This document shows positions 4,420 through 64,000 of a DNA stretch of 64,000 nt, piece by piece. Below the pieces are notes generated by a model that was not told the origin of the DNA, did no database searches, and was given only the letters and a program-made list of their open reading frames with translations. The translations under genes and the position numbers were made by a program. Source of the stretch: Escherichia phage vb_EcoM_bov11CS3; sequence record MT884009.2; one strand, given 5' to 3'. How positions within the stretch are numbered: position 1 is the stretch's first letter; each line of letters begins with the position of its first letter.

Positions 4420-4800
4420 CTAGAATGCAGTTCGAATCCAGACAAGGTTCTTATCTGCCCAATCATAGAGGCAAGTCATTGCGCTATTGAATTGCTCACA
4501 CGGAGGATAATCTTCTTCCATCTGGCGCATAGCAGATCCTTGTGGGTAAAGCTCCCGTGCTGCAAGCCACGCATCGTAGTCATCCACGGTATCGAAGTAG
4601 TATACAACATCCTCCAACTCAGGATCGAACTTTGAATTATCAGGATCCAGTTGTTCAGGGAACTTGGAGCGTAACTTGCCAGCCACAATGCTTGCCAACT
4701 CGCTAACATGCTTATTGTCCCACTCTACTAGTTTCCCGTCTTCAGCGATGCGTCCTAACCACTGATCATGAAGGTCAACTGTTGTCTTCCACCGGGCCAT
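4420..4800 (-). CDS. hypothetical protein, 126 aa
   Basis: ORF track; acidic, Trp-rich; no recognisable motif. Confidence 0.5.
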   Translation of the reverse strand: MARWKTTVDLHDQWLGRIAEDGKLVEWDNKHVSELASIVAGKLRSKFPEQLDPDNSKFDPELEDVVYYFDTVDDYDAWLAARELYPQGSAMRQMEEDYPPCEQFNSAMTCLYDWADKNLVWIRTAF

Positions 4801-4802
4801 TA

Positions 4803-5060
4803 TCAGTCCACCTCTTCTTCTCGTTGCAGTTCAAGATACCCGTAGGTCTGGATATCTTCAAGGGTGTGGAAATCCCCATCTGCCGCTAAGGCACGAACAA
4901 CTTGGCACAAAACTTTATGAGGAACTTCATCCAGACCCAGATTCAGTGCAGGGAACACCTTATCTAAGTCAACAAAATAAACGAACTGTAGCTCACCAGC
5001 TTCAAAAGGTGTATCTTCAATAAACATCTTCTCGGCATTAGTCAAGATCTGCACTTTCAT
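4803..5060 (-). CDS. hypothetical protein, 85 aa
   Basis: ORF track; 2-nt gap to neighbour. Confidence 0.45.
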   Translation of the reverse strand: MKVQILTNAEKMFIEDTPFEAGELQFVYFVDLDKVFPALNLGLDEVPHKVLCQVVRALAADGDFHTLEDIQTYGYLELQREEEVD

Positions 5061-60967: not shown

Positions 60968-61044
60968 TGGTCTCCACGGAGTGATTCGAACACTCGACCT
61001 CCTGATCCCAAATCAGGCGCTCTACCAAGCTGAGCTACGCGGAG
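60968..61044 (-). tRNA. tRNA-Pro (anticodon TGG), 77 nt, CCA encoded
   Basis: Hand-folded: acceptor CTCCGCG/CGTGGAG, anticodon stem CCTGA/TCAGG with loop TTTGGGA, T-arm GAGTG-TTCGAAT-CACTC. Confidence 0.8.
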
Positions 61045-61055
61045 TATTTATTATT

Positions 61056-61130
61056 TGGTGGCCCTGGGTGGAATTGAACCACCGTCTGGCGATTATGAGT
61101 CGCTTGCTTGAACCTTCCAGCTACAGGGCC
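61056..61130 (-). tRNA. tRNA-Met (anticodon CAT), 75 nt, CCA encoded
   Basis: Acceptor GGCCCTG/CAGGGCC, anticodon loop CTCATAA, T-arm GGTGG-TTCAATT-CCACC; Met versus lysidine-Ile not distinguishable by eye. Confidence 0.7.
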
Positions 61131-61131
61131 T

Positions 61132-61207
61132 TGGTGCTGATGGCAGGACTTGAACCTACAACCTATTGATTACAAATCAATTGCACTACCGATTGTGCTA
61201 CATCAGC
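61132..61207 (-). tRNA. tRNA-Thr (anticodon TGT), 76 nt, CCA encoded
   Basis: Acceptor GCTGATG/CATCAGC, D-arm GCAC-AATCGGTA-GTGC, anticodon stem ATTGA/TCAAT with loop TTTGTAA, T-loop TTCAAGT. Confidence 0.8.
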
Positions 61208-61212
61208 AAAAA

Positions 61213-61311
61213 GGTGCTAGGTGATGGAATCGAACCACCTATGTATTCAACGACTACCTCGTCTATTTTCAGGATTAAAAATCCTCGCCCTTGCCAAAGG
61301 GCTTACCTAGC
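61213..61311 (-). tRNA. atypical tRNA-like gene, 99 nt, anticodon loop TTTTTAA (Lys-TTT-like), about 30-nt variable region
   Basis: Perfect 7-bp acceptor GCTAGGT/ACCTAGC, D-arm GCCC-TTTGGCAA-GGGC, T-arm GGTGG-TTCGATT-CCATC, but only a 4-bp anticodon stem (AGGA/TCCT) and an oversized variable region with internal hairpin ACGA-GGTAG-TCGT; 3' end CC-T, not CCA. Confidence 0.35.
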
Positions 61312-61409
61312 TCAGTATGTTGACCATGTTGCTAGTCGGCGATGACGACTGTAACATTTGATAATCCGGTTCTGCTTCCGGCTTTCGCTTAATTACAAGG
61401 TCAACAATG

Positions 61410-61500
61410 TGGCGGAGAGTAATGGAATCGAACCATCATCGAGTCATCCTCAACGGGACGGTTTTCAAGACCGCTTGAGCACCATTGCTCCCTACCCTCC
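61410..61500 (-). tRNA. tRNA-Ser (anticodon TGA), 91 nt, long variable arm, CCA encoded
   Basis: Acceptor GGAGGGT/ACTCTCC, anticodon arm GCGGT-CTTGAAA-ACCGT, T-loop TTCGATT. Confidence 0.75.
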
Positions 61501-61614
61501 TTTATAAATTATACTGATAATGACACTGATTTTCGAGCAGTTAGTGACTAGTATAAACGACGATAAATATCAATGCCATTATCTGCATTATTTATGCATC
61601 TAAAAATATAAATT

Positions 61615-61701
61615 TGGTGGGGAGTGGTGGAGTCGAACCACCCGAGTCGCAATGACAATAGATTTACAGTCTACACCGCTACCTCTACGGGATAACTCCC
61701 C
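61615..61701 (-). tRNA. tRNA-Tyr (anticodon GTA), 87 nt, long variable arm, CCA encoded
   Basis: Acceptor GGGGAGT/ACTCCCC, anticodon region GACTGTAAATCT, T-arm GGTGG-TTCGACT-CCACC. Confidence 0.75.
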
Positions 61702-61705
61702 AATT

Positions 61706-61780
61706 TGGCACCCCGTACTGGACTCGAACCAGTGTCAACGGCTTAGAAGGCCGCTGCTTTATCCACTAAGCTAACAGGGC
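61706..61780 (-). tRNA. tRNA-Arg (anticodon TCT), 75 nt, CCA encoded
   Basis: Acceptor GCCCTGT/ACGGGGT (two G-U pairs), D-arm GCTT-AGTGGATA-AAGC, anticodon arm GCGGC-CTTCTAA-GCCGT, T-arm ACTGG-TTCGAGT-CCAGT. Confidence 0.7.
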
Positions 61781-61838
61781 ACTGGGTGGCTTTCTTTTAC
61801 ACCTTAGCCGCCAGAAAAGGTGGGAGACCATGTTTACA

Positions 61839-61867
61839 ATATTACACTGTTAAGCAAAGTTTGTCAA
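61839..61867 (-). promoter_or_regulatory. sigma70-like promoter upstream of the tRNA cluster
   Basis: Minus-strand TTGACA (rc 61862-61867), 17-nt spacer, TAATAT (rc 61839-61844); about 50 nt upstream of tRNA-Arg. Confidence 0.45.
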
Positions 61868-61876
61868 GAAAATATT

Positions 61877-62215
61877 TTAACTATTGCCAACAGGCTGTAT
61901 TTCTGTGGTGAATGGCATAAAAGGTGCTGGTTTTTCAGCCTCTTCTACTACCACCTCTTCCTCTTCACCAAACATCTCATCATATTCTTCCTGCATTCGG
62001 TCTGCCTTATCAAGAACATACTCTGCAATGCTTTGACGAATATTTTGTTTGGTTTTCGGGTCCAACATCAGCTCTCTTAAAACTTTGTGAGCTTCTGGAA
62101 CCATCGCTATAAAAGATTCCTTCATATCAAGGATGTTCTTCTCTAGCTGAATGGCGTTGGACTCCTCTTTCAGAGGTCTGCCTCTACGGCGACGCTTTTT
62201 AGTTGTATCCGCCAT
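61877..62215 (-). CDS. small basic/acidic DNA-binding-like protein, 112 aa (terminase small subunit candidate)
   Basis: Start moved to ATG 62215, preceded by GGAGG; N-terminus MADTTKKRRRRGRPLKEE is AT-hook-like; acidic C-terminal tail. TerS assignment is an inference. Confidence 0.35.
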   Translation of the reverse strand: MADTTKKRRRRGRPLKEESNAIQLEKNILDMKESFIAMVPEAHKVLRELMLDPKTKQNIRQSIAEYVLDKADRMQEEYDEMFGEEEEVVVEEAEKPAPFMPFTTEIQPVGNS

Positions 62216-62226
62216 GTTTCCTCCAT

Positions 62227-62238
62227 TATCACGTGATA
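62227..62238 (-). promoter_or_regulatory. perfect 12-bp palindrome TATCACGTGATA abutting the RBS of the 112-aa gene
   Basis: Palindrome lies 2 nt upstream of the Shine-Dalgarno ATGGAGGAAAC. Confidence 0.35.
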
Positions 62239-62563
62239 GGTGGATTTTATCATAGCAAATACTGATTGTCAAGTTCGCCGCAGGGTGGTGTTCCCTGCGA
62301 CTTGTCCAGCGTCCTGGACCAGCAAGACCCAACAAGTGGGTTTTCCAGCTATACCCATTACCGCGCACAGGCTCGACCTTATTACAGGTTGGCTGGGGTC
62401 ACATCGTCATGTGCTGGCTGCCCCTACCATTTTAAGTGTGGTGCACTATCAAGCCCTCTAAGGGGAACTCAGCTTTCTCCGAACCCTGTTTCAAAGCATC
62501 CGGAGATAAAGCCATCAAATTCATCTTTAAATTGGATATTCATCATGATACACGAAAACAACC

Positions 62564-62806
62564 TCATTGTAAAGCACAAATAAATAAAACATACTTGATT
62601 TGTTTGTTATCGGGCTCAGGGTAGAAGTAGAAGATCTTGCTATCACCGATCTGAACACCACCATCCCAACAGCATAGCCCATAACCCGTATTCATACAAG
62701 CTAAGTCGTTGGCAAAATCTATTGCATCATCCAGTGCACGAAATTCACCTTCATCTTCTAAATAATCCTCATTCATGGAACGAAAAACGAGCTTAACCTT
62801 AAACAT
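62564..62806 (-). CDS. hypothetical protein, 80 aa
   Basis: ORF track. Confidence 0.4.
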   Translation of the reverse strand: MFKVKLVFRSMNEDYLEDEGEFRALDDAIDFANDLACMNTGYGLCCWDGGVQIGDSKIFYFYPEPDNKQIKYVLFICALQ

Positions 62807-62882
62807 AGCATTACCTGTAGACCTCGTAAGTTAAAATTGTATCACATCATATTGCAGATCTTATCAGGTAACATTATTTTTG

Positions 62883-63092
62883 TCAACAGATTCCGGCCTT
62901 ATCCCTCCTGTCTGCGTATTCTTTAATCGCAACCTCATCTGCATTGGTGACTAAATCTTCAAAGTAACTCTCAAGCTCCTCGTCAATGTCAGGAAACCAA
63001 CTCTTTTTCCTGTCAGTGTGAATCGCAGACTTGTTGAATTTATTACAGTTCTTTGCTACCGGGTTGTTCATTAAGCGCTCCTCAGCGTTCAT
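62883..63092 (-). CDS. hypothetical protein, 69 aa
   Basis: ORF track; overlaps upstream gene by 11 nt. Confidence 0.4.
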   Translation of the reverse strand: MNAEERLMNNPVAKNCNKFNKSAIHTDRKKSWFPDIDEELESYFEDLVTNADEVAIKEYADRRDKAGIC

Positions 63093-63660
63093 AGTAAATT
63101 TTATTTAACATTACCTCATCTTTTGCAGAAAGAATACCGAGATATGCATCACCGAATCTACCTGCAACAACCTCTGCATGATACATCACTTCGTTAATAT
63201 CGTCAAGAGTGATAACTGGATGACCGTATCTCTCTGAGTATTGTCTCAGAGTGCGATGTAGAGAGTCATCATCATAGGCAGACTTTTTAATATCACAAAC
63301 ACGACGAATAGCCTTGATGTCGAAAAAACCTGTGCGATACCACCCAAGAAAAAGGTTTCGTGCAGTGTCAACATCTACATTGATACCATCAAGAACCTTA
63401 TCTACAAGATAGCTGTCATCCTTTGGACCAGCGTCCTTAGTGCGAATGTAGTTGCCATCTTTTCCAGGCGACATCTCCTTCTCATCCCCAACCTGCATGC
63501 CATCATTTGGCGGTGTTAGCCACTTATCCGGATGCTTACGATCACGAGCGTTAGAATGATTACGCTGGAAACCGGGCTTCCACTTGAAAGTTTTCTCCAT
63601 CTGTTCTTCATTCTGATAACGTTTTGCAATCTTTTCACGGTCATCTTTGCGTGAACCCAT
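63082..63660 (-). CDS. hypothetical protein, 192 aa
   Basis: ORF track; charged N-terminal region. Confidence 0.45.
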   Translation of the reverse strand: MGSRKDDREKIAKRYQNEEQMEKTFKWKPGFQRNHSNARDRKHPDKWLTPPNDGMQVGDEKEMSPGKDGNYIRTKDAGPKDDSYLVDKVLDGINVDVDTARNLFLGWYRTGFFDIKAIRRVCDIKKSAYDDDSLHRTLRQYSERYGHPVITLDDINEVMYHAEVVAGRFGDAYLGILSAKDEVMLNKIYYER

Positions 63661-64000
63661 AGCTGCCTCCTCTTCAAGTTATAGAAAAACTCACTGTATC
63701 GCTTTGTAACGAGCTTTTCTATCAAACTGGTGCGATTGCATTACCTGGTATAGTTTATATAGCTGTGGAGCGATTTAGGGGCCTTCTTGTCAGTTTCCAC
63801 ACATAAACTTCATCCAAGCTCGCGCGGGAGACTCTCAACCGACTCCTTACGGCGCTGGCAAGCTTTCGTCGGTGGTCCACATCAGTGCTCGGCCTTTGGC
63901 CTGCGCTATCGCTTCGCTCCCACACATGTTAACAGACCTGCATGTATGCACTTCTGTTATTGTGTGCACCAGGGAGGCCCGGCATCTCGCCCCTCGTAGG

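Follow-up and report, generated by a model that had tools for sequence, protein, structure and literature searches.

A very probable structured RNA between two small genes of an rV5-like Escherichia phage, with a core found in T4-like phages and near phage tRNA genes

What is carried by a 348-nt interval that separates two small phage genes and seems to encode no protein? The interval in question occupies positions 62216-62563 of a 64,000-nt stretch of Escherichia phage vb_EcoM_bov11CS3 (record MT884009.2), and this whole stretch is called the window below. Judging from its sequence, the window is that of an rV5-like Vequintavirus with the genes of this region on the minus strand: its last 2.2 kb have 100% identity to Escherichia phages bov22_2 and RudolfGeigy and 96-99% identity to about 115 rV5-like Vequintavirus records. 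The order of minus-strand transcription is ORF77, ORF76, ORF75 (62564-62806), the interval, ORF74, seven tRNA calls, spanins and the large terminase. An earlier note on this DNA described the interval as a GC-rich non-coding island with hairpins upstream of a candidate small terminase gene, and proposed a structured non-coding RNA, a packaging (pac/cos-like) site or a translational operator. We find that the interval is composite, consisting of a promoter-like site with a possible mini-open reading frame at the 62469-62573 end, an RNA (62273-62467), and the ORF74 promoter with a palindrome (62227-62272). The conserved element is very probably a structured RNA encoded on the minus strand, and the best reading of it is a new orphan structured RNA family that lies outside every Rfam model.

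That the interval holds no convincing open reading frame (ORF) was borne out, because 1-, 4- and 10-nt insertions or deletions in close relatives disrupt the long frames, namely a 105-aa plus-strand ORF and a 163-aa upstream extension of ORF74. The term GC-rich island fits the central 195 nt (62273-62467), whose GC content of 0.559 exceeds the maximum of any 348-nt segment of the window (0.529), but it does not fit the entire 348 nt, whose value of 0.477 (window mean 0.444, standard deviation 0.028) is equalled or exceeded by 13% of such segments. Folding of the minus strand gave z = -2.79, with 0 of 100 shuffles as stable, and folding of the plus strand z = -1.0; the minus strand is the relevant strand. 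A BLAST search of the region against all complete E. coli genomes gave no match, so the sequence is not host-derived. The RNA and its parts are as follows.

62273-62467, minus strand: structured RNA unit of rV5 type, with a 5' module, a pseudoknotted three-way-junction core and 3' hairpins; GC 0.559, z = -2.79
62429-62467, minus strand: 5' module (described as 45-nt), with a small hairpin in the region CCCC-UUAG-AGGG and CUUGAUAGUGCACCACACU
62395-62424, minus strand: stem P1, GGGG (62421-62424) with CCCC (62395-62398), enclosing the internal loop CAGCCAG and an inner hairpin
62413-62417, minus strand: 5' strand of the pseudoknot, CCAGC, in the P1 internal loop
62400-62413, minus strand: inner hairpin of P1, CACAU-GACG-AUGUG
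62351-62395, minus strand: family signature core, a three-way junction of ACCUGUAAUAAGGUC, a 3-bp mini-hairpin, GGUAA and a closing helix; 63.9 bits with our covariance model R1, E about 2e-16
62376-62389, minus strand: invariant hairpin Pa, ACCU-GUAAUA-AGGU, followed by the junction CGA
62363-62372, minus strand: mini-hairpin Pb, GCC-UGU-G(C)GC
62358-62362, minus strand: GGUAA of the core
within 62351-62395, minus strand: closing helix Pc, GCCA with UGGG
62345-62349, minus strand: 3' strand of the pseudoknot, GCUGG, pairing with the CCAGC of the P1 internal loop
62328-62340, minus strand: hairpin CCCA-CUUGU-UGGG, whose 3' half is lost in the relative L042 (10-nt deletion)
62304-62319, minus strand: hairpin GUCCAG-GACG-CUGGAC, the second hairpin of the earlier note
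62279-62299, minus strand: hairpin CGCAGGG-AACACCA-CCCUGCG, the first hairpin of the earlier note, at the 3' end of the RNA unit

The core is conserved between phage families far above the flanking genes. Its invariant block on the minus strand consists of ACCU-GUAAYA-AGGU (Pa), C(R)A, the 3-bp Pb and GGUAA, and the bases just 5' of ACCUG pair with those just 3' of GGUAA to form Pc, which closes the three-way junction. Among 54 distinct cores, 88% of cells were paired, and the covariation score was 0.224 versus 0.085 in shuffles (0 of 500 shuffles), dropping when the pairing partners were slid. The innermost Pc pair is kept in all 54 with five pair types (AU 28, UA 11, CG 7, UG 7 and GC 1), and a pair of Pb occurs as CG in 42, UA in eight and GC in two. 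In the sequence comparisons, covariation speaks for three parts of the fold: the mini-hairpin, the closing helix and the pseudoknot. Since G-U pairs, which would be A-C on the opposite strand, are frequent, the structure is specific to the gene-sense strand and hence points to RNA. The model R1 finds one copy in the window, at 62351-62395 with 63.9 bits, and gave 89 true hits of 40-71 bits among the loci examined versus at most 31 bits for chance pattern matches.

Outside the core, P1 varies by lineage yet stays paired (GGAAC/GUUCC, GGGAA/UUCCC, GGGAG/CUCCC, AAAGG/CCUUU, AAAGC/GCUUU, UGCAA/UUGCA, UGCGU/ACGCA and others), and stems of the P1 type are as a class longer than in shuffled flanks (5.39 vs 4.64 +/- 0.20). 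The pseudoknot is made by pairing between the 5' portion of the P1 loop and a segment that lies 4-12 nt past Pc, and its strands change together, for example GGGUA/UACCC vs GGGAG/CUCCC and CGGAA/UUCCG vs CGGUUA/UAGCCG, with CCGA/UCGG, CACAC/GUGUG, CGC/GCG and ACCA/UGGU elsewhere. When 28 lineages were compared in position-restricted windows, the cognate complementarity of loop and tail was reached by 0 of 100,000 permutations. In the class 2 alignment of T4-like members (n = 19), the central pseudoknot pairs are CG 14, AU 4, GC 1 and GC 13, CG 5, AU 1, paired in 19 of 19, and the P1 pairs show three pair types each with all sequences paired. The sister clade described below has GGAAC/GUUCC for P1, CUACG-GACG-CGUAG for the inner hairpin and a different loop-tail pair. 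The pseudoknot bases are invariant within the rV5-likes, and for this window we therefore infer the pairing by homology. Two further contacts are confined to some lineages: there the Pa loop can pair with the segment that follows the closing helix, and ACCU can pair at long range with a downstream AGGU. RNAalifold on a MAFFT alignment of both Vequintavirus clades gave a poor structure, because the clades were misaligned by one column in P1/P3.

The whole unit is conserved over the rV5-likes and a Vequintavirus-like sister clade (69-73% ORF74 identity), and its peripheral modules differ in how strictly they are kept. The 5' module is near-invariant between the two clades, and the sister clade has a second copy of CCCnUAGAGGGCUUGAWAGUGC downstream of the core. 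The hairpin at 62328-62340 is probably dispensable, because its 3' half is deleted in L042. Both hairpins listed in the earlier note are real: CGCAGGG-TGGTGTT-CCCTGCG is at 62279-62299 exactly as given, and GTCCAG-CGTC-CTGGAC exists but lies at 62304-62319, one base from the 62303-62318 reported. Conservation of these hairpins in relatives, on which that proposal depended, proved uneven. Pairing at 62304-62319 is kept through two compensatory changes in a 96%-related phage (L050/L079), GUCCAG/CUGGAC becoming GCUCAG/CUGAGC with the GACG loop retained, whereas the hairpin at 62279-62299 is present only in the rV5-likes, where the stem is invariant and the loop variable (AACACCA, AAUACCA or AAUGCCA), and is missing from the sister clade. 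The latter hairpin was not called as a terminator and has no U tract, and GCGAACUUGACA comes next. Two of the extra 5' and 3' hairpins of the RNA in rV5-likes have GACG loops. The compensatory changes at 62304-62319 and the 63.9-bit score of the core place the presence of the RNA beyond chance. The two listed hairpins are peripheral parts of it, and the strand, the true centre (62351-62395, outside both hairpins) and the link to T4-like phages and tRNA clusters had all been missed.

How widely does the element occur? A sensitive BLAST search of the interval found 609 phage records, of which 116 rV5-likes matched at full length, while about 490 T4-like phages (Tequatrovirus, Dhakavirus, Carettavirus and others) matched 45 nt only, at window positions 62352-62396 with 85-93% identity. 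T4 itself has the match in the denV-vs.8 spacer, and other T4-likes have a variety of genes upstream of the element but always vs.8 downstream of it. In T4-likes the element starts where the preceding gene has its stop codon, and 20-45 nt separate its end from vs.8; in one subgroup (L016, L058, L061 and L062), an extra small ORF widens this gap to about 470 nt. The vs.8 start in the T4 record is over-extended across the RNA, and the real start, MRTFLTG or MKTFLTG, is further downstream; neither the frame nor the start codon over the element is conserved among T4-likes. A conserved T4-like sequence, ATGYGCCAHGGAAYGGCCC, was considered as a leader peptide and rejected, its ATG being ACG or GCG in some members and its frame to vs.8 being lost. 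No vs.8 homologue was found in the window.

A BLAST search with the core of an uncultured phage (L084) added 222 records, mostly Klebsiella and Enterobacter phages and also Citrobacter, Erwinia, Edwardsiella, Yersinia and Vibrio phages, and the element occurs also in other Straboviridae. The Vequintavirus-like sister clade came to light through pattern scans of IMG/VR and metagenomes, as did about 30 members whose viral contigs are unrelated, one of them a jumbo contig of 359 kb. With the jumbo-phage variant as query, BLAST gave no named isolate beyond core-only matches. Pattern hits in bacteria and archaea (L093-L112), together with L039, L055, L059, L083 and L087, were discarded as chance matches, mostly in coding DNA and of at most 31 bits. 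Two features of the T4-like members may be recorded here. One T4-like lineage has tandem copies of the RNA (L071, 9022-9066 and 9136-9178; also L045), the upstream copy having the loop GUGAAA and the closing helix CUGG/CCAG. T4-likes (e.g. L001, 2440-2475, minus strand; L006) also carry an extra conserved 3' segment, AUGGAY-N6-AUGYGCCAHGGAAYGGCCC, with a hairpin GCCA-HGGAA-YGGC, and this segment is conserved at the nucleotide level, not at the peptide level.

Among about 21 non-T4 lineages, 13 have tRNA genes on the same strand as the element and within about 1 kb of it. In L033 a tRNA array surrounds the element, in L047, L056 and L084 it follows a tRNA at 44-51 nt, and the distance from core start to the nearest tRNA ranges over 44-578 nt. 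The orientation of the element is always that of the flanking genes and tRNAs, and no antisense tRNA was found near it. In GAP31-like Vequintavirinae, the element is absent and tRNA genes stand at the equivalent place, upstream of the ORF74 homologue. Downstream of the element there is vs.8 in T4-likes and ORF74 in rV5-likes, and elsewhere there are tRNAs, unrelated small ORFs, or nothing for at least 300 nt. We found no homologue of vs.8, ORF74 or ORF75 nearby in other lineages and no recurrent downstream gene family outside T4-likes and rV5-likes; the exception is L065, whose downstream ORF weakly matches phrog_3330, the ORF74 family (E 0.0035). The interval 62216-62563 contains no tRNA-like cloverleaf, all seven tRNA calls of ARAGORN and the Rfam tRNA model being at 60968-61780.

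We compared the element with known RNAs. The covariance-model scan that had been suggested as a check was positive with the purpose-built R1 and negative with Rfam 15 (4227 models), which at gathering score gave no hit on the element in the window; at E up to 10, only noise of less than 20 bits appeared on 61800-64000 and 62265-62545, and there was no Rfam hit on the element in five T4-like loci. A full-text literature search, including the literal sequence, found no description of it. It may be among the viral RNA candidates, about 8,500 in number and unnamed, that were catalogued in 2023 (PMC10690425).

T4 RNAs C and D (species 1 and 2, rnaC and rnaD) are phage small RNAs of unknown function whose genes share location and orientation with tRNA genes, as does the element outside T4-likes. 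However, identity with them was rejected, there being no sequence likeness by eye and no R1 hit in the T4 tRNA region (L048), and the T4 element is about 6 kb away, between denV and vs.8; likewise the T4 replication origin oriC is near rI.-1 and not at denV-vs.8. GOLLD and ROOL are carried by phages and prophages, often near tRNA genes. They resemble the element in being orphan structured RNAs of unknown biochemical role, but they are about 600-800 nt long and form multimers (PMC12286853), whereas the core of the element measures about 100 nt and its form in the window about 195 nt. The GOLLD and ROOL models of Rfam gave no hit on it, nor did those of RNase P. With RNase P RNA there is one sequence-verified similarity: GUGCGGUAAG of many members is a 10-nt identity to the specificity domain of E. 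coli rnpB, which has a second ...CGGUAAAC..., and these rnpB segments presumably help to dock the tRNA elbow, which would fit the association with tRNA. Such a 10-nt match is not improbable by chance in view of the number of RNAs compared, and the architecture around it differs; we treat it as a lead and not as a finding.

Before the role of the RNA can be weighed, its transcriptional setting must be described, and the features next to the RNA are as follows.

62545-62573, minus strand: sigma-70-like promoter TTTACA-17-TATCAT, which agrees with the consensus at 10 of 12 positions and overlaps the stop codon of ORF75
62244-62272, minus strand: ORF74 promoter TTGACA-17-TAAAAT with TG extension, which agrees with the consensus at 11 of 12 positions; it bears the name P74 in the rV5 record and was recovered by our promoter scan
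62227-62238, no strand assigned: perfect palindrome TATCACGTGATA, between the -10 box and the ribosome-binding site (RBS), over the predicted ORF74 transcript start
61877-62215, minus strand: ORF74, 112 aa, with basic N-terminus KKRRRRGRPLK and acidic tail; RBS GGAGG at 62220-62224

Transcription of the RNA may start from the putative promoter at 62545-62573, whose -10 box is TATTAT in L050. The sister clade has a TTGACA-17-TATACT promoter directly 5' of the element, with the -10 box about 8 nt upstream of the 5' module, and another sigma-70 promoter, that of the ORF74 homologue, directly 3' of the element; these two bracket a stretch of about 175 nt, so the element forms a unit of its own there. 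At the position equivalent to this sister-clade promoter, the window has a hairpin instead. The promoter scan gave 8 sites versus 2.4 expected. As a side observation, four sigma-70-like promoters occur within 1.1 kb (61839-62886, minus strand), each before a very small unit: ORF75, the RNA, ORF74 and the tRNA array.

The palindrome belongs to the promoter and leader of ORF74, separate from the RNA. It was correctly reported to lie beside the RBS of the 112-aa ORF, being 2 nt from GGAGG, and its conservation covers the rV5-likes but does not extend to the sister clade. From its position it may be an operator or a leader hairpin, and the idea of a translational operator is plausible for this palindrome only. 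ORF74 belongs to phrog_3330, a family annotated as function unknown, and gave no Pfam hit. Its candidacy as a small terminase is reflected in the identity of the top matches but not in their significance: the top five Foldseek matches of its AlphaFold2 model (three helices, predicted local distance difference test score (pLDDT) 68.5) are NV1/PaP3 small terminases, with an insignificant E of 0.27-1.1 and a template-modelling (TM) score of about 0.27, and the profile search reached the NV1 small terminase at an insignificant E of 0.36. The predicted protein is thus weakly small-terminase-like. Three features recur in homologues of ORF74 (L113-L117), namely an N-terminus of AT-hook-like type, K-RRR-x-GRPLKEESNAIQLEKN, an acidic linker and, after it, the motif PF(T/S)T(D/E)I at the C-terminus, and in GAP31-like phages the homologue stands mid-array among 8-16 called tRNA genes per 3.4-kb locus.

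What might the RNA do? The proposal of a structured non-coding RNA is supported by the conservation, the covariation, the strand-specific G-U pairs and the dedicated promoter of the sister clade. Beyond this, we put at about an even chance the reading, drawn from sequence comparison, that it is a stand-alone early RNA of the phage tRNA island which binds a conserved partner. Such an RNA would be made early by host RNA polymerase, either from its own sigma-70-type promoter or by read-through from ORF75, and would be one of the stable RNAs of the island. As a free RNA it would bind through its invariant junction a conserved partner, which may be a protein, a tRNA or a small ligand, and it would probably exert no control over the neighbouring gene. 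Several points weigh against this reading. The partner and the action are wholly what we infer; about 8 of about 21 non-T4 lineages show no tRNA in the DNA examined; in T4-likes the element has no promoter of its own and a leader-like placement between the upstream stop codon and vs.8; and the upstream promoter in the window is a mere 10/12 match. No intrinsic terminator was found on the minus strand of 61700-63000, our literature search turned up no expression report for any member, and the RNA may exist solely within longer mRNAs. As for the pseudoknot, the test on 28 lineages used hand-set P1 boundaries, and with broad windows the complementarity was not significant (p = 0.06).

The placement in T4-likes leads to a different explanation, namely a cis-acting leader, in which an aptamer or protein-binding operator in the 5' untranslated region (UTR) would set the expression of the next gene (vs.8 or ORF74) by ligand or protein. 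The pseudoknot operator of T4 gene 32 is a conserved pseudoknotted structure in a 5' UTR, and the element in its T4-like context resembles operators of this type and riboswitch leaders. It is upstream of vs.8 in all T4-like loci, in most cases with nothing else between the preceding gene's stop codon and the start of vs.8, it precedes ORF74 in rV5-likes, and the weak phrog_3330 match in L065 (E 0.0035) points the same way; an invariant junction with a pseudoknot is typical of aptamers, and an inverted repeat seen by eye in the sister clade could sequester the ORF74 RBS, in read-through transcripts only. However, the element is not tied to one downstream gene: the downstream genes are unrelated between lineages (vs.8, ORF74, tRNAs, small ORFs, or nothing for at least 300 nt), and often there is no downstream ORF. 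Thus, the conserved aptamer-like domain expected of a riboswitch is found, but consistent, functionally related downstream genes are not. Moreover, a consensus promoter separates the element from ORF74 in both Vequintavirus clades, the element often comes after rather than before tRNA genes, and no terminator, expression platform or obvious RBS-sequestering platform was found, although no systematic search for RBS pairing was made. We therefore regard a leader as possible but unlikely. The tRNA association also suits a self-cleaving ribozyme or processing signal that would cut polycistronic early or tRNA-cluster transcripts, as HDV-like (hepatitis delta virus-like) theta ribozymes and hammerheads do beside phage tRNAs, and precedent exists (PMC10879173). 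The element is compact and pseudoknotted, near viral tRNA genes, with many invariant junction nucleotides, and the strand order of its two interleaved helices (P1 5', pseudoknot 5', inner hairpin, P1 3', hairpins, pseudoknot 3') is that of the HDV nested double pseudoknot. Theta ribozymes, however, have their cleavage site within 5 nt of the tRNA and require a catalytic C at the first J4/2 position (PMC10879173), whereas the core of the element begins 44-578 nt away from the closest tRNA, a tRNA is lacking from the neighbourhood in many loci, and the segment matching J4/2 opens with invariant GGUAA and has no conserved C. Equivalents of P3, L3 and P1.1 are not conserved in the family, the inner, P3-like hairpin being wholly missing in L033, L047 and L056, and no Rfam ribozyme model, including HDV, gave a hit even at E up to 10. 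We hold this explanation to be possible, though slightly less likely than a leader.

A site acting at the DNA level, such as a pac recognition site or another protein-binding element for the small-terminase-like ORF74, has a very small probability in our estimation, and a pac site is unlikely. Sites of the pac type are often in or near terS, which with the weak small-terminase matches and the AT-hook-like N-terminus of ORF74 would speak for it; in addition, the element of L028 is 360 nt after an ORF for the C-terminal domain of the large terminase (TerL), and vs.8 weakly resembles the TerL ATPase (E 1.4e-5). But G-U pairs and one-strand covariation indicate RNA, and the orientation always matches flanking genes and tRNAs. 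Furthermore, T4-like copies lie upstream of vs.8, far from genes 16 and 17, other copies are inside tRNA arrays, and the element is absent from GAP31-like phages that retain ORF74; for the conserved element, the earlier proposal of a pac/cos-like site is thus not upheld. It is least probable of all that the interval contains promoters only, with hairpins that arose by chance or that stabilise transcripts in a spacer between two small genes. The unremarkable GC content of the whole interval, the promoter-like sites in the region, and several rV5-like stems that never vary and hence give no covariation information would agree with this explanation, which the comparative sequence data already contradict through the conservation of the 45-nt core across phage families, the formal covariation and the compensatory changes in the hairpin at 62304-62319.

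If the element is indeed a functional RNA, then an unannotated and strongly constrained RNA is present in more than 800 sequenced phage genomes, including T4 and the rV5-likes. Its compact fold, a three-way junction with a pseudoknot, is of the kind found in ribozymes and aptamers, and its address in tRNA clusters raises the testable question whether phages carry accessory RNAs acting on translation, tRNA processing or tRNA-targeting defences. A bolder extension, to which we give a low probability, is that the element represents a new class of functional RNA common to T4-like, rV5-like, jumbo and other tRNA-carrying phages. Such a class would consist of self-cleaving ribozymes of a new type, or else of RNAs whose invariant GUAAYA and GGUAA loops dock tRNAs or a host factor handling or cleaving tRNAs; if this were true, the phage tRNA "toolkit" would have an RNA component that had escaped notice, even in T4. 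The accessibility of T4 genetics and in vitro assays should allow the function to be determined quickly. For annotation, several "hypothetical proteins" called over the element would be spurious.

We finally note several observations made in the surroundings. A 21-nt sequence, AAAGATGAATTTGATGGCTTT (62469-62546 region, minus strand; about 2170-2200 in L051-L054), is kept across both Vequintavirus clades; its two sole substitutions are synonymous in the frame K-D-E-F-D-G-F, and it lies in an 8-codon ORF (MKDEFDGF) with a good RBS in the sister clade and in a 25-codon ORF without RBS in the window, so that it could be a micro-ORF or a promoter-upstream element. An ARAGORN call of 99 nt at 61213-61311 on the minus strand reads "tRNA-???" and has a 4-base anticodon; the Rfam tRNA model gives it only 35.5 bits and the rV5 record no annotation, and it may be an intron-containing, frameshift-suppressor-like or decayed tRNA. 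A second GC-rich (0.575) and structured-looking stretch, without Rfam hit, occupies 63755-64000 on the minus strand and runs past the window end, corresponding to 4536-4800 of the rV5 locus L002, and the 56-aa "ORF 78" annotated over it in rV5 resembles a spurious translation. Just past the high end of the window, at about 4925-5040 of the same rV5 record, the inverted repeat CTGTCCGT-GATA-CGGACAC occurs four times and is followed by a very AT-rich stretch; these repeats adjoin a gene annotated as "replication initiation protein" and look like the iterons of a replication origin.

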